Assembly: GCA_964621195.1 (NCBI GenBank)
Contig: CAZULJ010000004.1
Coordinates: forward strand, 16,620-80,619
Direction of reading: 5' to 3'
Length of the DNA: 64,000 nucleotides
DNA from: an uncultured Candidatus Saccharibacteria bacterium
GTDB taxonomy: Bacteria; Patescibacteriota; Dojkabacteria; SC72
A model generated the notes under the pieces. That model was not told the origin of the DNA, made no database searches, and saw only the letters and a program-made list of their open reading frames with translations. Of this stretch, positions 792 to 63,962 are shown one piece after another (within the stretch, counting starts at the first letter, position 1; each line of letters opens with the position of its first letter). The position numbers and the translations under genes were made by a program.

Positions 792-2108
792 CTATTTACG
801 ATCCCTATACAAATTCCTAAAGCTAGCGATTTCATTTACAAATGCAAGCTCTACCATACCTGTAGGACCATTTCTGTGCTTTGCAAGAAATATATCTGCA
901 GTACCCTTTCTTTCTGTATCAGGATTCCATGTTTCTTCCCTATCTACAAATATTACGACATCGGCATCCTGCTCAATAGATCCTGACTCTCTAAGATCGG
1001 ATAGCTGAGGTCTTCTTCCTTGTCTCTGTTCAATTGCACGAGATAGCTGTGAAAGGGCAACAACAGGTACATTTAATTCTTTTGCGAGATTTTTTAAACC
1101 TTGTGATATTTCTGATACTTCAAGAGTTCTGCTCTCTTTGCTGCTTCCGTGCATCAATTGCAAATAGTCTACAAAGATAATATCTACACCATGCTCTAAA
1201 GCTAATCTTCTAGATTTTGTTCTTACCTGATTAATATGTTGACCTGCCATATCGTCTATGAAGATATTAGCATCACCAAGCTCACCCATTGTATTGGCTA
1301 ACTTAATAATCTTCTCATCATTTAATTTGTTTGTCCTAATTTCCCAAAAAGGTATACCAGATTGCATGCCTAGTAGCCTATCCATAATCTGCATATTGGA
1401 CATTTCTAGGGAAAAGAATGCGACATTCTTCTTTTCAACCAAAGAGGCATGCCTCATCATATCCAAGGCTAATGAGGTTTTACCAACAGATGGCCTTGCA
1501 GCAAGTATAATTAAGTCGGACTTTTGGAAACCACCAAGCAGTACATCTAAGTCTCTAAATCCAGTAGAAATACCAGAGTAATCGTCAGTGCTTTTTGCAT
1601 GCGCTGCTCTCTCGTATGCATCTTTTAACAGTTCCTTAACATGAACAAAGTTACTCTTAACACCCTCTTGAGCAACATTAAAAAGAAGTGTCTCTGACTT
1701 ATCAACAACTTCAGATATATCCATAGTCTCATCAAAAGAGAGAGTAGTTATTTGTGACGCAGAGGAGATTAACCCCCTTCTTGTAGCATTCTCTTTTACA
1801 ATATTCGCATACTCCTCCACATGAGCAGAGGTGGGAACAAAGGATGCTAACTCAGTAAGATATGCACGACCACCAACCTTCACCAATATTTTCTTCTTCT
1901 TTAATCTATCAGATATTGTTACTAGATCTATTGGTAAACCATGTTCAAAAAGCTCTAAAATATTTTGATATATCAAAGCATGACGATCATCATAGAAATG
2001 GCCAGGCTGTAACCACCCAGAAACATTTATCAAAGCGTCTTTGTCCAAAAGCATAGAACCAAGGACAGATTTCTCAGCTTCAATATTTTGTGGTGGTATT
2101 TTCTCCAT
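792..2108 (-). CDS. dnaB: Replicative DNA helicase DnaB
   Basis: N-terminus PQNIEAEKSVLGSMLLD (DnaB N-domain). Walker A GKTSLALD, a RecA-like C-terminal domain, and FIDDMAG / DYLQLM motifs. Confidence 0.9.
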   Translation of the reverse strand: MEKIPPQNIEAEKSVLGSMLLDKDALINVSGWLQPGHFYDDRHALIYQNILELFEHGLPIDLVTISDRLKKKKILVKVGGRAYLTELASFVPTSAHVEEYANIVKENATRRGLISSASQITTLSFDETMDISEVVDKSETLLFNVAQEGVKSNFVHVKELLKDAYERAAHAKSTDDYSGISTGFRDLDVLLGGFQKSDLIILAARPSVGKTSLALDMMRHASLVEKKNVAFFSLEMSNMQIMDRLLGMQSGIPFWEIRTNKLNDEKIIKLANTMGELGDANIFIDDMAGQHINQVRTKSRRLALEHGVDIIFVDYLQLMHGSSKESRTLEVSEISQGLKNLAKELNVPVVALSQLSRAIEQRQGRRPQLSDLRESGSIEQDADVVIFVDREETWNPDTERKGTADIFLAKHRNGPTGMVELAFVNEIASFRNLYRDRK

Positions 2109-2115
2109 TTATTTT

Positions 2116-2763
2116 TTAATTAAGAAATATTACCTCCATATTCTTCTGCTCCTGCTCAGGAGAAGGAGATACGTTTATATATGACTCATCTCTAACATTT
2201 GTAAAACCAAAGTATTTAATAAAGTCTTCCCTACTCTTTATATCCTTACCAACTTTTAGCCCATCCTGTTTGTATGCACATGGGAGGAGTATTGTAGGAT
2301 CTACATTGTTAATAACTTTCTCAATTTTGTCATAATCGATAAAGAGAGATCCATTACCTATTGGTAGAATCAATACATCAACATCTCCAAGATCTTTAGT
2401 AGAAGATGTATCGAAGCTATTATCTAAAAGTCCCATGTATACAACACGCAAGATTGTTTCATCAATTAAATAGAAAGGAGCCTCAACATCTCTTCTTACC
2501 ATAACTCCACCAATCTCAAATTCTCCAGGGGATGATATTTCAATAATGGATTCTCTGTGCTCAGGCTCAACTTTCTTTAAGAGATCATTCTCCTTTAGGA
2601 TCTCTTCTTTACCTATTAATTTCTTATCTGTATACAAAACAACATCTGTCTTTACTTTAGTAAAACTCAATCCACTTTCTTTTAATGCAAGAGGATCCGT
2701 AATTAATGATATTTCGCCAACTGTTAATTGAAAGGTTGACCATCCGAGATTTTTTATCTTCAT
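2116..2763 (-). CDS. MBL-fold (beta-lactamase superfamily)-like protein, apparently degenerate because the His ligands are missing
   Basis: 215 aa. The pattern DVDVLILPIGNGSLFIDYDKIEKVI...TILLPCAY resembles the metal-dependent hydrolase (Lactamase_B_3-like) fold. The whole protein contains only one His. Confidence 0.4.
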   Translation of the reverse strand: MKIKNLGWSTFQLTVGEISLITDPLALKESGLSFTKVKTDVVLYTDKKLIGKEEILKENDLLKKVEPEHRESIIEISSPGEFEIGGVMVRRDVEAPFYLIDETILRVVYMGLLDNSFDTSSTKDLGDVDVLILPIGNGSLFIDYDKIEKVINNVDPTILLPCAYKQDGLKVGKDIKSREDFIKYFGFTNVRDESYINVSPSPEQEQKNMEVIFLN

Positions 2764-38765: not shown

Positions 38766-38966
38766 TTACTTAGCTCTTCTTCTAGCAGATCTTCTTCTTC
38801 TCTTCATCTTAGCCCACTCCCTTCTCTTTTGAATATCAAGATCAGCTTCCTTTACTCTATATACTTTCTCTCTGTATGTTTCAAGGATCTTCTCTCTCAT
38901 AACTTCTCTGTGAAGCCTTTTGAGTGCACTATCTATATTTTCATTGGCATGAACTATAACTGCCAT
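38766..38966 (-). CDS. rpsU: 30S ribosomal protein S21
   Basis: 66 aa. Basic C-terminal tail KRRRRSARRRAK. RLHREVMREK... Confidence 0.85.
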   Translation of the reverse strand: MAVIVHANENIDSALKRLHREVMREKILETYREKVYRVKEADLDIQKRREWAKMKRRRRSARRRAK

Positions 38967-39014
38967 GAGGTTTACCTCCTTTAAATTAAAGCGACTGGAT
39001 TATATCACACAATT

Positions 39015-53978: not shown

Positions 53979-54102
53979 AAAGCCTACGGTAATATAGGGA
54001 ATACAATTAGATTTTGACTTTAGGTTTTCGTTAATCGTATGGCATATTACTACTAACCAAAGTTATCCTCTAAATAGTAACACAAATTGAGAGTAAAAAC
54101 AT

Positions 54103-54131
54103 TTGACCTAACCTTAATATTTCAATATAAT
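54103..54131 (+). promoter_or_regulatory. Candidate sigma70 promoter for rpmG / tRNA-Trp / secE-nusG
   Basis: TTGACC-N17-TATAAT, about 50 nt upstream of the rpmG ATG. Confidence 0.45.
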
Positions 54132-54182
54132 ACTTTGTATTTCCCATAATATCCTAGTTATTAATTTTGACGCGTAAAAAAG

Positions 54183-54347
54183 ATGGCAAAAGTTAAGAGA
54201 GATATAATTGCTTTGAAGTGTACAGTATGTGATAGTAAGAACTACACCTCTTACAAAACAAAGAACATAAAAGAGAAGATTGAGAAGAACAAATATTGTC
54301 CAGTATGCCAAAAACATACTGTTCATAAGGAGACAAAAGTTAAGTAA
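54183..54347 (+). CDS. rpmG: 50S ribosomal protein L33 (zinc-ribbon type)
   Basis: The ORF track did not list it because it is under 60 aa. My translation is MAKVKRDIIALKCTVCDSKNYTSYKTKNIKEKIEKNKYCPVCQKHTVHKETKVK. Conserved position before tRNA-Trp and secE. Confidence 0.8.
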   Translation: MAKVKRDIIALKCTVCDSKNYTSYKTKNIKEKIEKNKYCPVCQKHTVHKETKVK

Positions 54348-54367
54348 TTAAGCTGTTTTACAGACAA

Positions 54368-54439
54368 GGGCCCATAGTTTCAATGGTAAAACAGTGGTCT
54401 CCAAAACCATAGTTCTCCGTTCGAGTCGGAGTGGGCCTG
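54368..54439 (+). tRNA. tRNA-Trp (anticodon CCA), CCA end not encoded
   Basis: GGGCCCA-TA-GTTT CAATGGTAA AACA...GTGGT CTCCAAA ACCAT-AGTT-CTCCG TTCGAGT CGGAG-TGGGCCT-G. Confidence 0.8.
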
Positions 54440-54450
54440 CTTGAAAGAAT

Positions 54451-54660
54451 ATGAATACATTAAAAAATATAATAATAGAATTAAAGAAAACTGAATGGCC
54501 AAGTATGGGCCAATTAGTGAAATTAACAGTATATACCCTACTCCTTTGTGGTATAATCGCTTTGCTAATACTGGGAGTAGATTTAGTACTATTCTGGCTC
54601 AGAGATCTTTGGATTGGAGAACAGGATGGAACCATTAGTAATTTAATATTAAATATATAA
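54451..54660 (+). CDS. secE: Preprotein translocase subunit SecE
   Basis: 69 aa. ELKKTEWPS...single TM helix. Position directly before nusG. Confidence 0.75.
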   Translation: MNTLKNIIIELKKTEWPSMGQLVKLTVYTLLLCGIIALLILGVDLVLFWLRDLWIGEQDGTISNLILNI

Positions 54661-54668
54661 ACTTAGGA

Positions 54669-55220
54669 ATGGCAGACGCAGTAAAAAAGGCAAATCCAAA
54701 AGCTAAGTGGTATGTTCTAAACATTAGGACTGGATATGAGAATAGTATAAAGAAAGAACTTCAACAAAGAATTGAAGCAACAGGCTTACAAGACAAGATT
54801 GAAGAGATTTTTATCCCTGTACAGAAGAAGATTTTCGTAAAGAAAGGTAAGCAGGATGTAAAAGAAGATAAGCTATTCCCTGGATATGTATTAATAAAGA
54901 TGGAATTAGATGAGAACACATGGGATATAGTAAAGAATACTGAAGGTGTTAGAGGTTTTGTAAAAACAGATAAATATCCAAAACCATTACCAGAAGCTGA
55001 GGTAAAAGCAATTATGAAATTTATGGAAGCCGAACAGCCATCATACCAAAGCTCATTTAGCGTAGGAGAAGCCGTAAAGATCTCAGATGGAGCATTTGCA
55101 GGCTTTATAGGTAGTGTCCAATCCATTGACAATACAAAAGGTAAGATAAAAGTCCTCATATCTTTCCTTGGTAGAGAAGCGCCTGTTGAACTTGATTTCT
55201 CACAAGTCAACAAGCTTTAA
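54669..55220 (+). CDS. nusG: Transcription termination/antitermination factor NusG
   Basis: NGN domain KWYVLNIRTGYENSIKKEL. C-terminal KOW (GEAVKISDGAFAGFIGSV). Confidence 0.9.
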   Translation: MADAVKKANPKAKWYVLNIRTGYENSIKKELQQRIEATGLQDKIEEIFIPVQKKIFVKKGKQDVKEDKLFPGYVLIKMELDENTWDIVKNTEGVRGFVKTDKYPKPLPEAEVKAIMKFMEAEQPSYQSSFSVGEAVKISDGAFAGFIGSVQSIDNTKGKIKVLISFLGREAPVELDFSQVNKL

Positions 55221-55245
55221 AATATATATTTGATTAGTAAAGAAA

Positions 55246-55671
55246 ATGGCAAAGGAAATAAAAAAGATAATAAAAATTACAATCCCAGCAGGACAAGCAA
55301 CCCCTGCACCTCCAATTGGTCCAACATTGGCACCATATGGAATATCAACACAGGAATTCTGTATGCAATTCAATGAAAGAACTAGAGAAGGAAATGGTAT
55401 TCTTACACCAGTAATAATTACAATTTACGAAGATAGATCTTTTGAATTTATTACAAAGACTCCTCCTACATCAGAATTGATAAGGAGAGAGATAAAGATG
55501 AAAAAAGGCTCTGCAAGACCTAACTTAGAAAAAGTTGGAAAACTTTCAAAAGACCAAATCAAAAAGATTGTAGAGGTTAAGATGCCAGATTTAAACACTT
55601 CTGATCCAGATCAAGCAGCAAAAATAGTTGCTGGAACTGCAAGACAGATGGGTGTTGAGACTGAAATATAA
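55246..55671 (+). CDS. rplK: 50S ribosomal protein L11
   Basis: IKITIPAGQATPAPPIGPTLAPYGI... Confidence 0.9.
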   Translation: MAKEIKKIIKITIPAGQATPAPPIGPTLAPYGISTQEFCMQFNERTREGNGILTPVIITIYEDRSFEFITKTPPTSELIRREIKMKKGSARPNLEKVGKLSKDQIKKIVEVKMPDLNTSDPDQAAKIVAGTARQMGVETEI

Positions 55672-55690
55672 CGTATAAAAAACATATAGA

Positions 55691-56380
55691 ATGAAAAGAG
55701 GAAAGAAATATATAAAAGCAGTTAAGAATCTAGACAGGAATATAGCATATACTGTTGAATCTGCAGTAAAAGAAGCAAAGAAGACTTCTTACAGTAGCTT
55801 TGTAGGTACATTGGAAGTACATTTTGATATAAAGATTCCAAAAGATAGAGATCCAAAGTCAATCAAAGGTGCTCTTGCCCTACCACACTCTAGTGGAAGT
55901 AAGAACGTTAAGGTTGCAGTCTTTGCATCTCCAGATATGGATAAAGTTGCAAAGGAAGCTGGTGCAGAGTTTGTAGGTTTAGATAACCTAATAAAGGATG
56001 TAAAAGCTGGAAAGATAGAATTTGATGTAGCAATTGCGACACCATCTGCTATGCCTGAGATTGCAATCTTAGGAAAGGAATTAGGTCCTAAAGGCCTTAT
56101 GCCTAATCCAAAGAACGGAACAGTAACAGATGATATTGCACAAGCAGTATCTGAATACAAAAAAGGGAAACAGACTTTCTCATGCGATACCTCTGGAGTA
56201 ATACATATGACAGCGGGTAAATTAGATATGGATGATGAGAAATTAGTAGAGAACGTACATGCATGTGTAATAGCATTAGAAGAAGTATTAGGAAAGGTAT
56301 ATACACAATCAATGGATAGGATGCATTTAGCACCTACAATGGGACCAAGTTTCAAAATTGAGTACAGTAAGCCAGAGTAA
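55691..56380 (+). CDS. rplA: 50S ribosomal protein L1
   Basis: MKRGKKYIKAVKNLDRNIAYTVESAVKEAKK... Confidence 0.9.
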   Translation: MKRGKKYIKAVKNLDRNIAYTVESAVKEAKKTSYSSFVGTLEVHFDIKIPKDRDPKSIKGALALPHSSGSKNVKVAVFASPDMDKVAKEAGAEFVGLDNLIKDVKAGKIEFDVAIATPSAMPEIAILGKELGPKGLMPNPKNGTVTDDIAQAVSEYKKGKQTFSCDTSGVIHMTAGKLDMDDEKLVENVHACVIALEEVLGKVYTQSMDRMHLAPTMGPSFKIEYSKPE

Positions 56381-56403
56381 TTATTAAATTCTTCGATTAC
56401 TAT

Positions 56404-56433
56404 AGACCTCCTATACAGGAGGTCTTTTTCTTT
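56404..56433 (+). terminator. Hairpin plus U-run after rplA (terminator/attenuator)
   Basis: AGACCTCC-TATACA-GGAGGTCT followed by TTTTTCTTT. Confidence 0.5.
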
Positions 56434-56573
56434 ACCAAATGATTTGAGACTCTAAATATCATTTACCAGAGCGGGTTTTTAATATATAATTCTCACCAGC
56501 AAACCAACTATGGGCAAATAGCCCACGTCGCTCTGTAACAATTGTTCTTGACTCAAGACAAGGAGATTTTAGA

Positions 56574-56858
56574 ATGGCAACCAAAACCGACAACAAATGC
56601 AAAGGCTGCGATCGCTCAGGTGAAGAGTGCTTGGGGTGTACATCCGATTTAGATGCATCCGAGCTTCTCGAAATATTCCTCGGGGAAAAAAGTGAGGAAG
56701 AGCAGATTCAATTTTTCGTAGAAATACTTAAAGTTGGACCTCAAGATGCAGCAGATTTGCTGACATCCTTCCTCGGAAAAAGAACCGAAAGTGAGCAAGT
56801 TGAATTCTTCGAGCGATTGCTAGAGAAGGAGGGGTTAGGACCAATCGATATCGAATAG
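56574..56858 (+). CDS. Small acidic Cys-motif protein with an internal tandem repeat, inserted between rplA and rplJ
   Basis: AAGGAG SD 8 nt before the ATG. 94 aa. CKGC-x7-CLGC. Two roughly 29-aa repeats, ELLEIFLGEKSEEEQIQFFVEILK and DLLTSFLGKRTESEQVEFFERLLEK, with conservative substitutions. Local GC is above the window average. Confidence 0.4.
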   Translation: MATKTDNKCKGCDRSGEECLGCTSDLDASELLEIFLGEKSEEEQIQFFVEILKVGPQDAADLLTSFLGKRTESEQVEFFERLLEKEGLGPIDIE

Positions 56859-56898
56859 CTTTACTGGTACACGTCGACTGGTTGGTTCTGCTAAAAGC

Positions 56899-56952
56899 AA
56901 GAGAGGACGGTAGATTGCAATCTACAACTAGCATCATATGCCGTCCTCTCTT
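56899..56952 (+). promoter_or_regulatory. 12-bp perfect-stem hairpin with a roughly 30-nt loop in the rplJ upstream region
   Basis: The arms AAGAGAGGACGG and CCGTCCTCTCTT flank a loop containing the 16-nt palindrome GTAGATTGCAATCTAC. Confidence 0.4.
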
Positions 56953-56980
56953 GACTGAACCATTGCCAATCATATATAAT
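56951..56980 (+). promoter_or_regulatory. Candidate sigma70 promoter for rplJ-rplL
   Basis: TTGACT-N18-TATAAT. The -35 overlaps the 3' arm of the hairpin. About 95 nt upstream of the rplJ ATG. Confidence 0.4.
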
Positions 56981-57073
56981 CCCCTTAGTAATTATCCTAA
57001 GAAACATGGTACAAAAATAAATCCATGCGAGGAAACTGATAATTCAAAAATATTAATTAATTAAGTACATACG

Positions 57074-57595
57074 ATGTCTAAAAGTCGTACTCAAAAGGAA
57101 GAGCTACTTAAAAAGTATAAAGATTTGATTGAATCAAAAGCTGGATACCTTTTAGTTAACTCAGATAAGATTGACACTGCAACAGTAACAGGTCTTAAAA
57201 TCCAATTAAAGGATGTAGATGCAAACTTTACAGTTGTCAAAAACAGTATCTTTAAGGTTGCACTTCAAGATACAGATCAACCATTACAAGTACAGGAATT
57301 TGAAGGTCCAACAGCTATTATTGCATTTGAACAAGATCCGACAGCACCAGCAAAATTAGTAAAAAAGATGCAAAAAGAAACTGAACTATTGGAACCAAGA
57401 AGTGGTGTATACGAGGGAGAGTTCTTAAGCGCAGAGAGAGTAATGCAGTTAGCAGATATCCCATCAAAGGAAGTCTTGCTATCAAGATTAGTAGGAACTA
57501 TGAATGCTCCTTTAACTGGCTTTATGAATGCAGTTACTGGCAATGTAAGAGGTTTAACAGTAGTACTTAAAGGTATTGCTGAGAGTAAATCTTAA
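57074..57595 (+). CDS. rplJ: 50S ribosomal protein L10
   Basis: 173 aa. LVNSDKIDTATVTGLKIQLKD... Confidence 0.9.
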   Translation: MSKSRTQKEELLKKYKDLIESKAGYLLVNSDKIDTATVTGLKIQLKDVDANFTVVKNSIFKVALQDTDQPLQVQEFEGPTAIIAFEQDPTAPAKLVKKMQKETELLEPRSGVYEGEFLSAERVMQLADIPSKEVLLSRLVGTMNAPLTGFMNAVTGNVRGLTVVLKGIAESKS

Positions 57596-57631
57596 TATAT
57601 AGTTATATTTTAATTTATTTTATTTACCTAA

Positions 57632-58036
57632 ATGTCAGACGAAGCAAAAACTCTTCCAACATTAACAGAGAATGCACAGAAAGTAATCGAAATGGTTGAG
57701 AAAATGACCGTTTTAGAACTTGCAGACCTTGTTAAGGTTATGGAAGACAAATTCGGAGTAAGTGCTGCAGCTCCAGTAGCAGTAGCAGCAGCTCCAGCAG
57801 AGGCTGCACCTGCAGAAGAAGAGAAATCTTCATTCAATATTGTTCTTAAAGAAGCAGGAGCAAACAAGATCGGAGTAATCAAAGTAGTAAGAGAGATTAC
57901 AGAGCTTGGATTAAAAGAAGCAAAGGATCTTGTAGAGGCTGCACCACAGACAGTAAAAGAGTCTGTAAAGAAAGAGGATGCAGAAGCTATCAAAGCAAAG
58001 TTCGAAGAGGCTGGTGCAACTGTAGAGTTAGCATAA
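57632..58036 (+). CDS. rplL: 50S ribosomal protein L7/L12
   Basis: Ala/Glu-rich hinge. C-terminal domain [24 protein letters not shown]...[14 protein letters not shown]. Confidence 0.9.
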
Positions 58037-58058
58037 TAGCTTACCTAGATATAGAATT

Positions 58059-58088
58059 AAGAGGTCTTGAAAAAGACCTCTTTTTTTT
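58059..58088 (+). terminator. Strong rho-independent terminator after rplL
   Basis: AAGAGGTCTT-GAAA-AAGACCTCTT followed by TTTTTTTT. Confidence 0.75.
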
Positions 58089-58167
58089 CCCACGGCTATA
58101 TTCGACAATGAATACCAAGACAAAGTATAATGTGGCGGATATATTCTAATTTTTCAGAATATTAAAA

Positions 58168-58833
58168 ATGTTTGATACAACAAGCTTAACACAGTGGGTT
58201 TTAGATCATGGAGTCCCCCCTACTGCATTAGAGCTACTAATGGCAATTTCTGTATTAGCGACTGTGGTAAGTATCGCAAGATATGTCATAGGTTCAAAAA
58301 CATATGGCATATATGCACCAATACTTCTCGCAATCGCATATTCATATACAGGGTTAAAATACGGACTTTCAGTAACACTACTAGTCATTCTTACCTCTTT
58401 AATCTCCTACAGCATACTTAAAAAGATTAGAATGCACTACTTAACTAGAATCGCTACCAACTACACGATACTCTCAATGTTACTAATCCTCTTCTTTGTA
58501 TTAATAGATCGATTTGGACTAGGATTGGACAATATGCATAATATTCCCCCTCTCGCATTCATATCAATAGCTGCACTCTCTGACTTCTTTATCAAACAGT
58601 ATGTAAAGAAATCACTTGAAGGATCTTTACTCACACTCTTTGGAACAATAACTGTTGCAATAGTTGGTTGGTTTGTAATATCTAGAGAAATAATCTCGGA
58701 ATATTTGATCCTAAATCTATGGATACTACCCGTACTAACAATCGTAAATATCCTACTAGGACAATTTACAGGGTTAAGAATCAGAGACTATTTCAGATTT
58801 AGACTAAGCAACAAAGATGACTCTAGCAATTAA
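58168..58833 (+). CDS. Seven-TM integral membrane protein, first gene of the ATP-grasp operon
   Basis: 221 aa. I count seven hydrophobic helices of about 20 aa each. Cytoplasmic basic tail RIRDYFRFRLSNK. The stop overlaps the next gene. Confidence 0.55.
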   Translation: MFDTTSLTQWVLDHGVPPTALELLMAISVLATVVSIARYVIGSKTYGIYAPILLAIAYSYTGLKYGLSVTLLVILTSLISYSILKKIRMHYLTRIATNYTILSMLLILFFVLIDRFGLGLDNMHNIPPLAFISIAALSDFFIKQYVKKSLEGSLLTLFGTITVAIVGWFVISREIISEYLILNLWILPVLTIVNILLGQFTGLRIRDYFRFRLSNKDDSSN

Positions 58834-60295
58834 CAATAGGTATAGCCAAATATTAGGCTTAAACCGAAGGAATCAAGAGTATGTGAGACCATACAATCCT
58901 CCTTCTGCCAAAGCTATTGCTGACAATAAAATACTAACAAAGAGAGTCCTAAAGAAAGAGTTAATACAAACACCGGAGGTCTACAAACTTGTAAGAACCA
59001 AAAAGCAATTACAATTTTTAGATTGGGATAGCTTACCAAAAAGCTTTGTTATAAAGCCCAACAAAGGAACAGGTGGAAATGGAATAATCGTATTCTACGG
59101 AAAGAAAAAAGGACAAGATGCATGGATAAGACCAAATGGATCAGTTATGACAAAGAGAGATATAATTCTTCATATAGAAAATATACTAGAGGGTAGATTC
59201 TCGATGGGTTCTCGTAACGACATTGCTATCATAGAGGAAAGAATTAAGACAGATTCCCTACTAAAGCAGTACTCATACAAAGGCGTTCCAGATATTAGAA
59301 TAATCTGCTTCAACGAGGTTCCCGTAATGGCTATGCTAAGATTACCAACTAAAAGATCTAATGGTACTGCAAATCTGCACTCGGGCGCAATATGTACAGG
59401 TATAGACTTAGAATCAGGTATTACGACCTACTCTATGCATATGAAGGCCTCTGCCTTTAGAACAGATTCCTACAAGCTTGTAGACTCAACCTTAGATCTT
59501 CAAGAGAATAAACCTCTAAGTGGTATTCAAATACCGTACTGGAACGAGATGTTAGAAATCGCACTTAAATGCCAGAAAGCAAGTAAACTCGGATACCTTG
59601 GTGTAGACATCGCAATAGATGCAGAAAAGGGCCCTGTTGTATTTGAAATAAATGCTAGACCAGGCCTCGGAATACAAGTAGCGAACCAAGCTGGTCTTAG
59701 ATGGAGGTTAGAGAAAGTAAAGGACCTGAATATAAAGAGTATAAAACATGGGATTAGAGTCGCAAAGAATCTCTTCGGAGGAGAAATTGAGGAAAATATT
59801 GAAGCTATCAGTGGTAGAAAGGTACTCAACATAGTTGAAAAAGTTACCCTCTTTAACAAAGGGACCGAGATAAGCAAGATTAAGAAGGCAAAGAAAATGC
59901 AAAAGGAAATAGTAAAGGCCTTCATGGACACCGGGATACTGACATCCAGAATCTCTTCCATACTTGCAAACAGGATAGGTTTTCTAAAAGCTGGGAAAGA
60001 TTTTGAGTCTTTAGATGTACCAAAAAGATTTGGAAGTTTCAAAGAAGCACAGGACTACATGGATAAGTATGAAAAGGATATCTGTACACGATACCCTGAT
60101 ATAAAAAGACTTGCTAAGATCTTAGAAGATGGAGAAATAAAAATAAGACCAGTATTTGAGATACCCATTAAAATATCTGACTCTATAAAAATAACAGAGT
60201 TTGTATCTACAGATTCCAAAGAAAATCTCTACCCAGTTGTCATAGGTAGGGCTGAACTATCCGGTTTCCTTATCGATACAAGTAATACATTCTAA
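58817..60295 (+). CDS. ATP-grasp amidoligase, RimK-related / sugar-transfer-associated ATP-grasp-like, with about 170-aa C-terminal extension
   Basis: FVIKPNKGTGGNGIIVF (ATP-grasp B-loop region)...LGYLGVDIAIDAEKGPVVFEINARPGL (C-terminal Mg/ATP motif). 492 aa. Confidence 0.6.
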   Translation: MTLAINNRYSQILGLNRRNQEYVRPYNPPSAKAIADNKILTKRVLKKELIQTPEVYKLVRTKKQLQFLDWDSLPKSFVIKPNKGTGGNGIIVFYGKKKGQDAWIRPNGSVMTKRDIILHIENILEGRFSMGSRNDIAIIEERIKTDSLLKQYSYKGVPDIRIICFNEVPVMAMLRLPTKRSNGTANLHSGAICTGIDLESGITTYSMHMKASAFRTDSYKLVDSTLDLQENKPLSGIQIPYWNEMLEIALKCQKASKLGYLGVDIAIDAEKGPVVFEINARPGLGIQVANQAGLRWRLEKVKDLNIKSIKHGIRVAKNLFGGEIEENIEAISGRKVLNIVEKVTLFNKGTEISKIKKAKKMQKEIVKAFMDTGILTSRISSILANRIGFLKAGKDFESLDVPKRFGSFKEAQDYMDKYEKDICTRYPDIKRLAKILEDGEIKIRPVFEIPIKISDSIKITEFVSTDSKENLYPVVIGRAELSGFLIDTSNTF

Positions 60296-60314
60296 AATAT
60301 TTCTCAAAGAAACT

Positions 60315-61292
60315 ATGAAAACATACGAAGAATATTTACAAGAAGCAGGTAATGTACATCTAGCCTACTACGTTGAAGCTGCAGATACGCTGGGCATAAA
60401 GTATGAGATCGTAAAAAGATCCCTTCTAGCAAAATTTTCAAACGATACGAAACATTGGTTCATAATTAATACTGCTACACCTCTTACCAATACAACAAGT
60501 ACTACAATTGCTAAGAGAAAAAACCTAACAAACGAGATCCTGTACAAGGCTGGGATACCAGTACCAAGGCAAGTTGTTTTAAGAAATAAAAATGAAGCTA
60601 TAAAGTTTTTTGAAGAGTACAAAACCATAGTCATCAAACCCTCTCAACAATTGGGAGGGAATGGTGTGACCTTACTACCAAAAGATAAAGGACAGGTAAT
60701 AAAGGCATTTAAAAGTGCAGATAAGTCTTCAAAGGCAAAAGATGAGAACAGAGTAATTGGAGAAGAATTCATAGAAGGAGAAAACTACAGATTCCTAGTA
60801 GTAGGAGATTCTGTTGTAGGCATTGTGAGAAGAAAGGCAGCTTTTGTGGTTGGAGATGGAAATAACAGTATTAAAAAATTAATAGAGGAGAAAAACAGAG
60901 AGAGAAAGAGTAACCTACTTAAGCCAATCCCTATAGATACTGAAGTTAAATTAAGATTAGAGAATCTTAAAATAAATCTCAATACCGTGCCAAGTGAAGG
61001 CGAAGAAGTTATACTTAGATACAACTGTAACCTAAGTACTGGTGGTACAACACAGGAGTGTTCATCCCAAGTACATGAATACTACAAAGAGATTGCCGTC
61101 AGTGCTGTGAAAGCAATTGGAACAGTATTTGGGGGAGTCGATATAATTACTCCAGATATTACACAACCTGCAAAATGCGGAGTAAATGAAATAAACTACA
61201 ATCCAGGTCTAAGACTACACTACAAAGTAGATGAAGGAGAGGCAGTAAAGGTTGCAATACCAATAATGGAATATATATCAAAAAATATTTAA
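60315..61292 (+). CDS. ATP-grasp ligase, cyanophycin-synthetase-like
   Basis: IVIKPSQQLGGNGV...ENYRFLVVGDSVVGIVRRKAAFVVGDGNNSIKKLIEEKN...NLSTGGT...GVDIITPDI...VNEINYNPGL parallels the CphA ATP-grasp domain. Confidence 0.6.
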   Translation: MKTYEEYLQEAGNVHLAYYVEAADTLGIKYEIVKRSLLAKFSNDTKHWFIINTATPLTNTTSTTIAKRKNLTNEILYKAGIPVPRQVVLRNKNEAIKFFEEYKTIVIKPSQQLGGNGVTLLPKDKGQVIKAFKSADKSSKAKDENRVIGEEFIEGENYRFLVVGDSVVGIVRRKAAFVVGDGNNSIKKLIEEKNRERKSNLLKPIPIDTEVKLRLENLKINLNTVPSEGEEVILRYNCNLSTGGTTQECSSQVHEYYKEIAVSAVKAIGTVFGGVDIITPDITQPAKCGVNEINYNPGLRLHYKVDEGEAVKVAIPIMEYISKNI

Positions 61293-61309
61293 TCTTTTTC
61301 TAAAACAAA

Positions 61310-63007
61310 ATGTTTAAAACATTACAAGGTTTAAATCTAGAGTCCCAGTATACAACTGTAAAAATATCATTAGAAGGATCAAATATTGGAGAGATAACAA
61401 AACTTCTTGATCAAATAAGTTCCTTCCACCCTATCTTTCTCTATGAATATATCCTCTCTCCGAAGGAACTTTCAATACGTTCAAAATTACCTGAAATATG
61501 GAGAGAAGCTGCTAATACACTCAACCAACTCTCAAAAGAGGAAATAAAATATGAAGATGCTCATGATATTCTGGTCAATACAATCATCTCAAAGAGGGTT
61601 AAATCAATGTCTACCATACCAATACTACACGCTGCTCACCAAAAGAATATCGAAACGAACTTAGCAGTATTGAGCAAATCAATAGTAGATGGATACGATT
61701 TAGGATACAACAGTACATTTAATAGATACTATGTACTTGGGTGTGGTAAGGGTTCCTCAGTTACCGTTTCAGTAGGATCATCAAAAGATTCAACCTACGG
61801 ATTTAAGATCCAAAGAGATAAATGGACAACAAACAGAATAATAGATAGATTGTGTCTGCCACTTCCTAAGTGGGAAGTAATAAATTCAGAAGAACATCTA
61901 GAGAAAGTTTGGGATAACTATGCAAAACCTTTAGTAATCAAGCCAACAGGTTTAACAGGAGGAAAAGGAGTAAGTGTAGGAATTAAAACACTTGAAGAAG
62001 CAAAGATGGCATTCAAAAGGGCAAAGAAAGATACAGATAGTAAGATAAGATCTCCCTGGCAAACAAAGATAATGATCCAAGAGCAAGTAAAAGGAGAAGA
62101 CTATCGACTACTCGTTGTAAATGGAAAGCTTGAGATTGCCACTAAAAGAATCCCTGCGTTTGTTGAAGGTGATGGAAAAAAGACTATCGAAAAATTAATA
62201 GAGGAAACAAACAAAGATCCAAGAAGGGATATAAAAAATCCGACCCATATACTAAAGCCAATAATCATAGATGAGCCACTTCTCGAACTACTAGAAAAGA
62301 ATGGCTTAACTCTTAAATCTATTCCAGAAAAAGGTTCAAGAGTATATGTAAGAAACATTGCAAGCATGAGCCAAGGAGGTATAACAGAGGACTTTACTGA
62401 TGAGGTAAGTAAAGAAATTAAACTTCTAGTTGAAAGTATTGCACAATCAATACATGCATTCACACTAGGTGTTGATGTGATTTGCCAAGATATTACTAAA
62501 CCATTAACCAAGGAGAATGGTGCTATCTTAGAAATTAACACAATGCCCGAAGCATACCTGAATTTCTTTCCAGTAATTGGTAAACAAAGAGGATACGTTG
62601 CAGATACTTTTGTAGAGGGCTTACTCTCTGAGAATAAGTGTAAAAAGATAGTTGTTGTAGGACAAAGCATTAGCGATATCCCTACGAACTTAAGAAGATG
62701 GTGGAAGATTAAGAACGAAGATACTGTAGGAGAAATTGTAGAAGATCGTTACTACATAAACGGTATGCAAATAAATGAAGATCTAGAAAGAATACAGGCA
62801 TTTGAAGCTATAAAATGTAATGCTTCACTAGATGTAATAATTCTCCATCATAGAGACTGGAATGATGTTGCCGAATTTGGACTAGGATTTGATCATATAG
62901 ATACCCTTCTCATAACCAAAGAAGAGGCAAAGGACAGAGAAAAAGTAAAATTGATGAAGAAGTATAGAGGTATGAAATTAATAAATAAAATAGAGATAAT
63001 CTCCTAA
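61310..63007 (+). CDS. ATP-grasp ligase, cyanophycin-synthetase N-terminal-like. The C-terminal region lacks a Mur-ligase P-loop.
   Basis: LVIKPTGLTGGKGVSVG...EDYRLLVVNGKLEIATKRIPAFVEGDGKKTIEKLIEETNKDPRRD...SMSQGGIT...GVDVICQDI...ILEINTMPEAY. 565 aa. Confidence 0.65.
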   Translation: MFKTLQGLNLESQYTTVKISLEGSNIGEITKLLDQISSFHPIFLYEYILSPKELSIRSKLPEIWREAANTLNQLSKEEIKYEDAHDILVNTIISKRVKSMSTIPILHAAHQKNIETNLAVLSKSIVDGYDLGYNSTFNRYYVLGCGKGSSVTVSVGSSKDSTYGFKIQRDKWTTNRIIDRLCLPLPKWEVINSEEHLEKVWDNYAKPLVIKPTGLTGGKGVSVGIKTLEEAKMAFKRAKKDTDSKIRSPWQTKIMIQEQVKGEDYRLLVVNGKLEIATKRIPAFVEGDGKKTIEKLIEETNKDPRRDIKNPTHILKPIIIDEPLLELLEKNGLTLKSIPEKGSRVYVRNIASMSQGGITEDFTDEVSKEIKLLVESIAQSIHAFTLGVDVICQDITKPLTKENGAILEINTMPEAYLNFFPVIGKQRGYVADTFVEGLLSENKCKKIVVVGQSISDIPTNLRRWWKIKNEDTVGEIVEDRYYINGMQINEDLERIQAFEAIKCNASLDVIILHHRDWNDVAEFGLGFDHIDTLLITKEEAKDREKVKLMKKYRGMKLINKIEIIS

Positions 63008-63008
63008 C

Positions 63009-63962
63009 ATGAAATATTTAATAATTGATAAAAGACAGAGGGTTGAAACCGGGAATGAGGATAAAATTGCAACTGCCAACTTAAGAATAATTGAAGAATT
63101 GGACAAGAAAGATATACCCTACTCTCTTGTATACAATGATGAAATAGAGTTTCAAATAATCGATAGTGAAACATCGATATTTGTAAAAGGCGAAGATATA
63201 CGAGAATATACTCATATACTGTTTAGAGGACATGCTTTACATAACGAAATTGAGTATCAATATAAAAGATATATCATCGATTACATAGATCAATATAACC
63301 TAAAAAATCCAAAAGAAAGGATATTAATACAAAATAGCGAAGCAATAAAAACCCTTCCATATTACAATAAAATAGCACTCGGTTTGTTCTGTTCTCAAAA
63401 TGACATCCCCTACTTCAATACCTATTACAGAACAGACGGCAACTATATTGCACACAGAACGACCCTAGAGACATACCCCGTCATAATGAAAGAGTATTCC
63501 GGGGCAAATAGAGTTGAAATTATTGATGGAAAAGAAAAAATTAAAAAGAATGTATTTAAGATAACTCACGAAGATGATTACAGGCAGGAAGGATTACAAG
63601 GCCAGGACCACTCTAGGTTCTTTATACAGGAGTTCTCGGATAGTGGTATGGATATCAGAATATTCGTAAAATTGGGCAAGGTAATTGCTGGATGGAAGAG
63701 GAAAGCGACCGAAGGTTTCATGACCGTAAAGGACGGAGAATACTCCATGTACAACAACCCAGAGAAGGCCGATAAAGAACTTGCAGAGAATGTTGCACAG
63801 AAACTCAATGCGGATTTTATTGCTGTAGATCTTATGTATCTCAACAACAAACCATTACTACAGGAAGTTAGTTATCATCCAGGATTTAAAGCTTACGAAA
63901 CAAAGATCGAAGGAGAACCAGTAAATATTGCAGAGGCAATTATAACTGCCTTTAAAGGATAG
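63009..63962 (+). CDS. ATP-grasp ligase, RimK/glutathione-synthetase-like
   Basis: FIQEF...GMDIRIFVKLGKVIAGWKRKATEGF...ADFIAVDLMYLNNKPLLQEVSYHPGFKAY parallels RimK (LVQEY...[25 protein letters not shown]...LDVAGVDIL...LVMEVNASPGL). Confidence 0.6.
   Translation: MKYLIIDKRQRVETGNEDKIATANLRIIEELDKKDIPYSLVYNDEIEFQIIDSETSIFVKGEDIREYTHILFRGHALHNEIEYQYKRYIIDYIDQYNLKNPKERILIQNSEAIKTLPYYNKIALGLFCSQNDIPYFNTYYRTDGNYIAHRTTLETYPVIMKEYSGANRVEIIDGKEKIKKNVFKITHEDDYRQEGLQGQDHSRFFIQEFSDSGMDIRIFVKLGKVIAGWKRKATEGFMTVKDGEYSMYNNPEKADKELAENVAQKLNADFIAVDLMYLNNKPLLQEVSYHPGFKAYETKIEGEPVNIAEAIITAFKG

Follow-up and report, generated by a model that had tools for sequence, protein, structure and literature searches.

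A small Cys-knuckle protein gene between rplA and rplJ in Candidatus Dojkabacteria and its possible link to translation

The 64,000-nucleotide (nt) stretch of contig CAZULJ010000004.1 analyzed here (the window) contains a 94-codon open reading frame (ORF) at positions 56574-56858, in the spacer between the ribosomal protein genes rplA and rplJ. Sequence comparisons show that this ORF truly codes for a protein and forms a transcription unit of its own, lying between the terminator of rplK-rplA and the promoter of rplJ, and that its product belongs to a new family of Cys-knuckle mini-proteins (family A) that is lineage-restricted, locked to one position and rapidly evolving. Our overall explanation, to which we give somewhat better than even odds, is that a real, separate family A gene occupies this slot and encodes a zinc-stabilized adaptor that acts in trans and is possibly tied to translation. 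The closest public relatives of the window's L10 protein come from metagenome-assembled genomes of Candidatus Dojkabacteria / candidate division WS6 (identity of at most 96%), and homologues of its bS21 protein bear these names too, which places the organism in Dojkabacteria, within the candidate phyla radiation.

A protein family confined to the rplA-rplJ spacer

The genes in this part of the window follow the order rpmG, tRNA-Trp, secE, nusG, rplK, rplA, spacer, rplJ and rplL, and the spacer, put at about 690 nt in the first-pass annotation, measures 693 nt (56381-57073; rplA stop at 56380, rplJ start at 57074). An ORF of at least 94 codons arose in 2.4% of shuffled spacers; ORF length alone is therefore weak evidence for a gene and conservation in relatives is decisive. 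For this comparison the surroundings of rplJ homologues were gathered from genomes (67 loci) and metagenomes (73 loci); individual loci are given L numbers below. The metagenome loci were obtained by an L10-based scan, and metagenome scans with the family alignment, which was too divergent, or with the ORF, which found no match, gave nothing.

It was weak tblastn matches in the spacers of relatives that led to family A. A single-sequence search of 5.8 billion proteins returned only the 94-amino-acid (aa) protein itself, and phmmer, run exhaustively on 1.84 billion representatives, added two matches, a 79-aa relative and a repeat protein, P0002. With a 13-member profile, the 5.8 billion proteins yielded 11 matches of 56-94 aa, all of them unannotated and lacking Pfam domains, and each of the database matches whose context was fetched lay between rplA and rplJ. 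A six-frame hidden Markov model (HMM) search of 844 kb of Dojkabacteria loci found 27 matches to family A, along with 19 and 17 to two sister families, B and C (see below), all on the plus strand and inside the spacer. In total there are about 20 distinct family A homologues. Every one of them comes from Dojkabacteria and has its gene on this strand of the rplA-rplJ spacer, where it mostly ends about 170-255 nt before rplJ; the majority of the six-frame matches to family A stop 172-235 nt ahead of the rplJ ATG. Neither the protein searches nor the Dojkabacteria loci revealed homologues in other lineages or in mobile elements, and a literature search on small cysteine-rich proteins of Dojkabacteria gave nothing relevant. 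In family A proteins a Cys4 knuckle at the N-terminus is followed by a linker helix and then by the C-terminal module ...EEExx(F/Y)FExxLxxEGLxP(I/L), which usually forms the end of the protein.

The family evolves under constraint. For homologue pairs with unsaturated synonymous divergence, the ratio of nonsynonymous to synonymous divergence (dN/dS) was 0.19 for L004/L006 (dS of 0.50), 0.09 for L028/L073, 0.17 for L039/L074 and 0.11-0.19 among L018, L071 and L076, with each value resting on 56-63 codons only; ratios of 0.09-0.19 in six pairs point to purifying selection at the protein level, which the first-pass annotation had read from conservative substitutions between repeats. The relatives do not hold the non-coding, homologue-free spacer that would have spoken for the opposite; homologues under this degree of constraint occupy the same slot. 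Between the window and the closest genome, L004, the ORF product is only 41% identical with a dN of 0.60, as compared to 0.023 for L10, 0.043 for L1, 0.006 for L12 and 0.148 for the 7TM protein, and between L004 and L006 the dN of the ORF exceeds that of most neighbors two- to threefold and that of L10 about sixfold. Family A evolves two to four times faster than its neighbors and is yet constrained. Four contigs that encode the exact protein are identical across the whole spacer and are uninformative on strain variation.

Local GC content is raised, as had been noted earlier. The ORF has a GC content of 0.45, and its values at the three codon positions (GC1/GC2/GC3 of 0.56/0.34/0.44), calculated as the first-pass annotation had proposed, support coding. 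Its GC3 compares with 0.21-0.25 in the ribosomal neighbors and exceeds the maximum (0.367) among 48 long window ORFs (0.296 +/- 0.034). The orthologue in L004 has a GC3 of 0.46 against 0.18-0.26 for its own neighbors; GC-richness is therefore a trait of the family and gives no sign of recent import.

The coding features of the gene are as follows.

56574-56858, forward strand: coding sequence of the family A slot gene, encoding an acidic protein of 94 aa (net charge -13, isoelectric point (pI) 4.3).
56598-56639, forward strand: Cys4 knuckle CKGC-x6-CLGC, the presumed zinc site (residues 9-22), with Cys conserved in the family.
56649-56741, forward strand: repeat copy 1, from self-alignment, a predicted helical hairpin (residues 26-56; helices 28-37 and 41-54, with a predicted local distance difference test score (pLDDT) of 84-89).
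56745-56846, forward strand: repeat copy 2, a predicted helical hairpin with the invariant LxxEGLxP(I/L) (residues 58-91; helices 56-67 and 72-85).

The four cysteines are C9, C12, C19 and C22, in the arrangement CKGC-DRSGEE-CLGC; the knuckle reported earlier is therefore present, with a spacing of CxxC-x6-CxxC in place of the x7 first given. It is conserved among homologues, C12, C19 and C22 being invariant and C9 nearly so (alignments A2 and A3), while the spacing varies from x3 to x8 and some members read CxxCPC...CP. We infer that the knuckle binds zinc and thereby stabilizes a very small fold. The tandem repeat is likewise genuine: residues 26-56 align with residues 58-91 at a BLOSUM62 local self-score of 76, as compared to 22.2 +/- 4.2 and a maximum of 42 in 2000 shuffles, although the repeat unit is about 31-34 aa long and not roughly 29 as first described. 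In the 30-codon ungapped stretch starting at residues 30 and 61, the two copies are identical at 16, 18 and 12 of 30 sites for codon positions 1, 2 and 3, respectively, and the low value at position 3 fits divergence of the repeats under protein-level constraint. Copy 2 is the counterpart of the single module of other family A members. Doubling was found in the window species only (the window and L001-L003), all other distinct members having one module; in this species the module was tandemly duplicated, giving two predicted helical hairpins. Within the module L83, E86 and L88 are invariant in A2 and A3, and G87 is conserved in at least 90%. AlphaFold2, run with an 11-sequence alignment, gave a mean pLDDT of 73 and predicted the four helices listed above at pLDDT 83-89, from which each repeat would be a helical hairpin. 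The product includes the stretches SEEEQIQFFVEILK and TESEQVEFFER, and nearly all family A members have a pI of 4.0-5.1; the acidic charge makes direct binding to nucleic acid unlikely.

Scans of the ORF and of representatives of families A, B and C against Pfam, NCBIfam, PHROGs and PADLOC found nothing at or near threshold, a sequence profile search of the PDB reached E = 0.68 at best, and no fold match was found. Zinc-finger structures gave no significant match, a RanBP2-type finger scoring E = 1.4. Small proteins of this general kind are known elsewhere: the zinc-finger mu-proteins of Haloferax volcanii are small one-domain proteins with two CxxC / C(P)xCG knuckles, and bL31, bL33, bL36 and uS14 are small zinc-knuckle ribosomal proteins. 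Like them, the ORF product belongs to the 50-100 aa range, has two closely spaced CxxC pairs, lacks an enzymatic domain and presumably holds a structural zinc, and like the genes for the ribosomal examples its gene sits among translation genes. Unlike them, it is acidic rather than basic, shows no detectable sequence or fold similarity to them, carries the LxxEGLxPI helical module, and comes from a fast-evolving family found in one phylum and one slot. The earlier suggestion of an anti-sigma-like protein finds no footing, as the 94 aa include no His and therefore no HxxxCxxC, and the neighboring genes are rplK, rplA, rplJ and rplL with no sigma-factor gene among them.

The repeat protein P0002 (632 aa) matched the module at E = 3.6e-8, summed over its repeats. 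We took this as a similarity of helix composition with no evident link to the family. P0002 consists of eight repeats of about 56 aa with ILGNLxEEEQxxWFxKFIExE(E/G)I and has no Pfam domain.

The transcription unit and the rplJ control region

The elements that flank and enclose the coding sequence are listed here.

56404-56432, forward strand: intrinsic terminator of rplK-rplA, a 9-bp stem and T run found by a terminator scan.
56462-56490, forward strand: promoter-like site of the small gene, with -35 TTTACC (56462-56467), a 17-nt spacer and -10 TATAAT (56485-56490); 10 of 12 matches.
56498-56510, forward strand: 5' arm of a long-range helix, situated where the mRNA is predicted to start and pairing with 56879-56892.
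56560-56565, forward strand: Shine-Dalgarno (SD) sequence AAGGAG, 8 nt before the ATG, with a predicted pairing energy of -9.6 kcal/mol.
56879-56892, forward strand: 3' arm of the long-range helix, 21 nt past the stop codon, forming 13 pairs with 56498-56510 with a bulged C at 56888.
56898-56953, forward strand: terminal hairpin CAAGAGAGGACGG...CCGTCCTCTCTTG, from inverted repeat and fold, with a 15-bp stem and no U tract.
56951-56980, forward strand: rplJ promoter, with -35 TTGACT, an 18-nt spacer and -10 TATAAT (11 of 12 matches), the downstream boundary of the small gene.
56981-57073, forward strand: rplJ 5' leader, with stems 56995-56997/57031-57033 and 57005-57009/57023-57027.

The rplA terminator separates the ORF from the upstream operon, and an equivalent hairpin, AGACCTC..GAGGTCTTTTT, is present in relatives. 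At a place equivalent to that of the putative promoter, all family A, B and C loci have a CTTTAC(A/C)-N17-TATAAT-like site. The long-range helix is retained in the minimum free energy (MFE) fold of 56495-56962, which is more stable than all of 100 shuffles (z = -4.4), and its arms covary in relatives, with at least nine helix sequences across the three families, including CAAACCAACC/GGTTGGTTTG, TGGAAATCAATG/CATTGATTTCCA, ACAAACTTACC/GGTAAGTTTGT, GTCTACCGAG/CTCGGTAGAC and TTGACAGACTAAT/ATTAGTCTGTCAA. Eight or more uninterrupted Watson-Crick pairs form in 66% of cognate 5'/3' pairs versus 9.6% of non-cognate ones, and the duplex energies differ at P = 1.6e-10. The SD sequence is mostly unpaired in the predicted fold. 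The small mRNA probably ends at, or is terminated by, the terminal hairpin. In 40 loci the hairpin takes 17 distinct forms, with stems of 10-17 bp and covarying inner pairs; it was not seen in L061, the empty-spacer locus examined, and its 3' arm in the window overlaps the rplJ -35 element. The coding region is itself predicted to be heavily base-paired, for example 56608-56617 with 56811-56820 (GCGATCGCTC with GAGCGATTGC), and this internal pairing may be behind the raised GC content.

The strength of the fold and the covarying closing and terminal helices, taken with the frequency of ORFs this long in shuffled spacers, could be read as a structured non-coding RNA in which the ORF is incidental. 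We give this reading very little credence, the least of any considered here, as start, SD and frame are kept in about 20 homologues of very different nucleotide sequence, the Cys positions and the EGL motif are invariant, and the dN/dS ratios are those of a protein under selection. A dual role as structured mRNA is possible, and forms part of the explanation that we favor. There are parallels for an mRNA closed in this manner; the mRNAs of the hok family (through the fbi element) and the hbs mRNA of Bacillus subtilis are closed by a long-distance 5'-3' interaction, and, as in these, the 5' end of the predicted small-gene mRNA pairs just past the stop codon. In contrast to the hok-like type I toxins, however, the ORF product would be soluble, acidic and built of amphipathic rather than hydrophobic helices, and no antisense RNA was identified at the ORF.

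The first-pass annotation had also raised the possibility that the ORF is part of an L10-operon regulatory leader. It does share the rplA-rplJ spacer with such leaders (RF00557; E. coli rplJ), but it ends at 56858, upstream of the rplJ promoter at 56951-56980, and is therefore not part of the L10 leader. Moreover, a CTTGAC(C/T)-N17/18-TATAAT promoter and a leader of about 95 nt are kept in essentially all Dojkabacteria loci, including those with ORF-less spacers of 131-142 nt. In an RNAalifold analysis of 37 diverse leaders, 6 of 8 pairs showed compensatory changes, and the loop sequences UAAGAAAC and UAAAUCC are invariant. In this clade the leader probably serves as the L10 autoregulatory binding site, though Rfam does not recognize it. 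Neither the ORF region nor 56981-57073 matches RF00557 (L10_leader), the Rfam model having no match at E <= 1 in 54000-59000 and none at gathering score in the whole window.

A related scenario is that the ORF acts in cis, as an upstream ORF or leader peptide that controls rplJ-rplL by attenuation through the downstream hairpin. The geometry would permit this, since 21 nt separate the stop codon from the closing helix's 3' arm and some 40 nt separate it from the hairpin that overlaps the rplJ -35 element, and a hairpin that lacks a U tract might be read through. Even so, we regard it as very improbable: the rplJ promoter and covarying leader persist where there is no ORF, purifying selection over the whole length and three alternative families of 50-150 aa are atypical for leader peptides, and in some genomes two or three slot genes, or kilobases of sequence, precede rplJ (L029, L019 and L045).

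Turnover of the slot

The rplA-rplJ spacer of Dojkabacteria has a median length of 758 nt and a range of 131-3682 nt, and is shorter than 200 nt in only 4 of 94 distinct spacers. Family B proteins begin with (Y/F)PCCxC...C...CP(A/V)A, followed by helices, and family C proteins are basic, about 125-150 aa long, with an N-terminal MCxFCExKxYCxDC and a C-terminal ...DPNW; further small groups of slot proteins also begin with a Cys knuckle. Families A, B and C have in common the Cys-knuckle N-terminus, the promoter, the strong SD, the covarying closing helix between 5' and 3' untranslated regions and the terminal hairpin. Profile-profile comparisons of A with B and of A with C gave weak matches in the knuckle alone (P of about 0.001-0.002), and the case for common ancestry therefore rests mainly on the shared architecture and on intermediates: L039, L051 and L074 join a B-like N-terminus to an A-type C-terminus, and L048, L123, L129 and L133 end in ...YLxxxGLGxx. 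Two loci have slot genes in tandem, C and A in L014 and A and B in L029.

Turnover in the slot is extensive. In 24 of 47 cases the nearest neighbor by L1 and L10 identity holds a different family or none; L056 (family B) and L124 (family C), at 97% identity, are one such case, and L078, whose L10 is 95% identical to that of the window, holds a family B gene. Either tandem paralogues have been lost differentially or alleles have been exchanged by recombination. The spacer is also a general insertion hot spot, and on inspection unrelated insertions were seen in it in L059 (about 2050-2644, reverse strand), in the spacers of L036, L046 and L053, and in L064 and L065: a RelE-like toxin with an antitoxin-like ORF, NAD-dependent epimerase-like genes and repeated units coding for small membrane proteins.

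These observations bear on the most serious competitor to our explanation, in which the slot gene would be one of many accessory cassettes that gather at a recombination hot spot, interchangeable, possibly conflict-related and with no functional tie to the ribosome. The rate at which families replace each other between near relatives, the toxin-antitoxin-like, epimerase-like and membrane mini-protein ORFs of other spacers, and the outlying GC3 and SD usage would all be accommodated by it. Composition taken by itself would mark the window ORF as foreign, its GC3 of 0.44 lying above the window maximum of 0.367. We nevertheless consider such a cassette unlikely. No match to PHROGs or PADLOC and no homologue outside Dojkabacteria or outside the slot was found, the spacers that were read showed no sign of an integrase, a transposase or repeat boundaries, and the shared architecture, the intermediates and the tandem arrangements in L014 and L029 fit divergence in place and differential loss better than import. 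For much the same reasons the original proposal of horizontal acquisition does not hold up well: homologues occupy the same slot of Dojkabacteria, the high GC3 recurs in L004, all homologues checked have a strong SD, and again neither PHROGs nor PADLOC gives a match.

One close relative, L005, has a 349-nt spacer with a 22-codon ORF, MSEEERILFFESVLEAEGLNPL, at 2425-2493; it corresponds to the C-terminal module, and the terminal hairpin is intact. We considered it as a minimal functional module and set it aside, since the alignment shows a deletion remnant from which the -10 region and the knuckle have been lost. It is probably a decaying remnant.

Shine-Dalgarno usage, possible role and significance

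The SD sequence that the first-pass annotation described in front of the 94-codon ORF is present, and it is an exception in its surroundings. Pairing energies were computed against an assumed canonical 16S tail, the window containing no 16S rRNA. Of 60 gene-like window ORFs, only two have a strong SD: rpsU ranks first at -13.4 kcal/mol and the 94-codon ORF second at -9.6, with a median of -1.6 kcal/mol. There is no SD at rpmG, secE, nusG, rplK, rplA, rplJ, rplL, the 7TM gene or the ATP-grasp gene; the leaders of the starts at 54183, 54451, 54669, 55246, 55691, 57074, 57632, 58168 and 58817 are A/U-rich, with no GGAG-type motifs. Across the clade, energies of -7 kcal/mol or stronger were found at none of 256 distinct starts of rplK, rplA, rplJ, rplL, nusG and the 7TM gene versus 45 of 46 slot genes; slot genes were scored at the best-SD start among early in-frame candidates, which introduces a slight bias that is far smaller than the gap between medians (-9 versus about 0). 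Elsewhere in the window, at 2818-2970 on the reverse strand, a 50-aa ORF follows a GGAGGT and matches the C-terminal two-thirds of the CsoR-type Trns_repr_metal family at 24 bits (cut-off 22.8); it is possibly another SD-led small gene, or mis-started.

The other strong SD in the window belongs to the following gene.

38766-38966, reverse strand: rpsU (bS21), with an extended SD, TAAAGGAGGTAAACCTCATG / AAAGGAGGT (-13.4 kcal/mol), at about 38974-38982.

Pfam Ribosomal_S21 recognizes the rpsU product at threshold, and public sources call it S21. An extended rpsU SD, TTTAAAGGAGGT, is found in three of four other Dojkabacteria genomes (L152-L154, at about 283-296) and is missing in L151 (HGW-Dojkabacteria-1). 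There is precedent for such a pattern in Bacteroidia, where bS21, bS18 and bS6 sequester the anti-SD and bS21-less ribosomes translate rpsU, the sole SD gene (PMC7797042, PMC9976891, PMC13000453). A term search of this work on Bacteroidia bS21 and the SD (PMC7797042, PMC9976891, PMC13000453) found no mention of candidate-phyla-radiation bacteria. The Dojkabacteria genome resembles this circuit in being essentially SD-less with an extended SD at rpsU, a likeness that we regard as suggestive. It differs from Flavobacterium, where rpsU alone has an SD, in that the slot genes form a second, non-ribosomal SD family. A bold extension would be that Dojkabacteria have a Bacteroidia-like regime, with no SD on ordinary mRNAs and an anti-SD that is as a rule out of reach, in which rpsU and the hypervariable slot mini-proteins make up a "free anti-SD regulon" that is read by a sub-population of ribosomes, for example bS21-less ones, the mini-proteins acting back on the stalk or platform; we think this quite unlikely. 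More simply, an mRNA that is rich in GC and strongly folded may need an SD that the A/U-rich leaders around it can do without.

With regard to function, the scenario we favor is that the conserved acidic helical module would serve as a protein-protein interaction surface, through which the family A protein, in this view a small adaptor or modulator, may act in trans; the duplicated version of the window species would be bivalent. Its target would probably lie in the translation apparatus. Our reasoning for this is that the gene has a fixed place in the stalk gene cluster and that SD-dependent translation is common to it and bS21. The closed, GC-rich mRNA with its SD would probably provide a regime of stability and initiation apart from that of the A/U-rich, SD-less ribosomal mRNAs.

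Several points weigh against this explanation. Families A, B and C are all missing from about half of the 94 distinct spacers, and the closest relatives frequently hold a different family; that the gene is dispensable or replaceable speaks against a core role in the ribosome. For a link to translation there are just two grounds, gene position and the SD parallel. The bS21 signature in Bacteroidia, a less basic C-terminal domain with Tyr54, holds the 16S tail (PMC7797042), and the window bS21 ends in a highly basic C-terminus, ...QKRREWAKMKRRRRSARRRAK, unlike that signature, so that a Bacteroidia-type mechanism would be a possibility at most. AlphaFold2 models the knuckle with low confidence (pLDDT of about 43-50 for residues 1-20, about 50 for the knuckle segment and below 50 over residues 14-18), the dN/dS estimates come from the short alignments given above, and the lack of a U tract in the terminal hairpin leaves read-through into rplJ possible.

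The same location in the stalk gene cluster, together with the Cys4 knuckle and the gene's own strong translation signal, could also indicate a lineage-specific ribosomal or ribosome-associated protein, and for this too there is precedent, bL38 of Bacteroidetes having been found as a small gene inside a ribosomal operon (PMC7797042). We consider this improbable in view of the protein's acidity, its hypervariability (dN four times that of the neighboring membrane protein), the alternation of families and the absence of the gene from several genomes. There is also no similarity to L12 or to any ribosomal protein family; a direct comparison of the L12 N-terminal domain with the family module showed none, and so gave no hint of stalk mimicry.

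A further scenario takes its cue from the genes that follow rplL. From 58168 to 63962 and on past the window end (11595-18556 in L001) there are a 7TM_transglut gene, four RimK/ATP-grasp genes and, on the opposite strand, a MATCAP-like carboxypeptidase gene. The first two of these, 7TM_transglut and the first ATP-grasp gene, were checked across Dojkabacteria and follow rplL there as well. The make-up of the cluster suggests a ligase/peptidase system that adds and trims C-terminal residues. Repeated modules occur in some peptides modified by ATP-grasp enzymes, the enzymes in question lie 1.3-7 kb downstream of the ORF, and the acidic tail of family A is conserved and sometimes ends in ...EGLEELEEE; the ORF product might thus be a substrate or precursor whose C-terminus is extended by amino-acid ligation and then trimmed, S6 with RimK and the tails of tubulin being examples, or it might be a graspetide-like peptide. 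We hold this to be highly unlikely. Almost all Dojkabacteria loci have the cluster after rplL, even where the spacer is empty (L025 and L061) or holds family B or C, and because it is nearly universal there is no co-variation with the slot gene and a co-occurrence test is not discriminating. Furthermore, rplJ-rplL with their own promoter lie between the ORF and the cluster, and the C-terminal residue of family A varies (PI, PIDIE, PIQ, VIE, PISVA and EE).

Bacteria of the candidate phyla radiation get by with reduced ribosomes, and hardly any biochemistry has been done on them. The present work describes from this group a family of small proteins, so far without annotation, whose genes keep to the ribosomal stalk gene cluster and whose mRNAs share a conserved architecture with a 5'-3' closing helix and a terminal hairpin. 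It also provides a rule for annotation: where the rplA-rplJ spacer of Dojkabacteria is long, one to three SD-led mini-genes are to be expected in it, with a distinct rplJ leader RNA after them. Finally, it raises the testable question of whether specialized translation through bS21 and the anti-SD extends beyond Bacteroidota to a very distant phylum and controls more than rpsU there. If a free anti-SD regulon of the sort outlined above were true, it would represent control by ribosome heterogeneity outside Bacteroidota, with a second, non-ribosomal class of targets.

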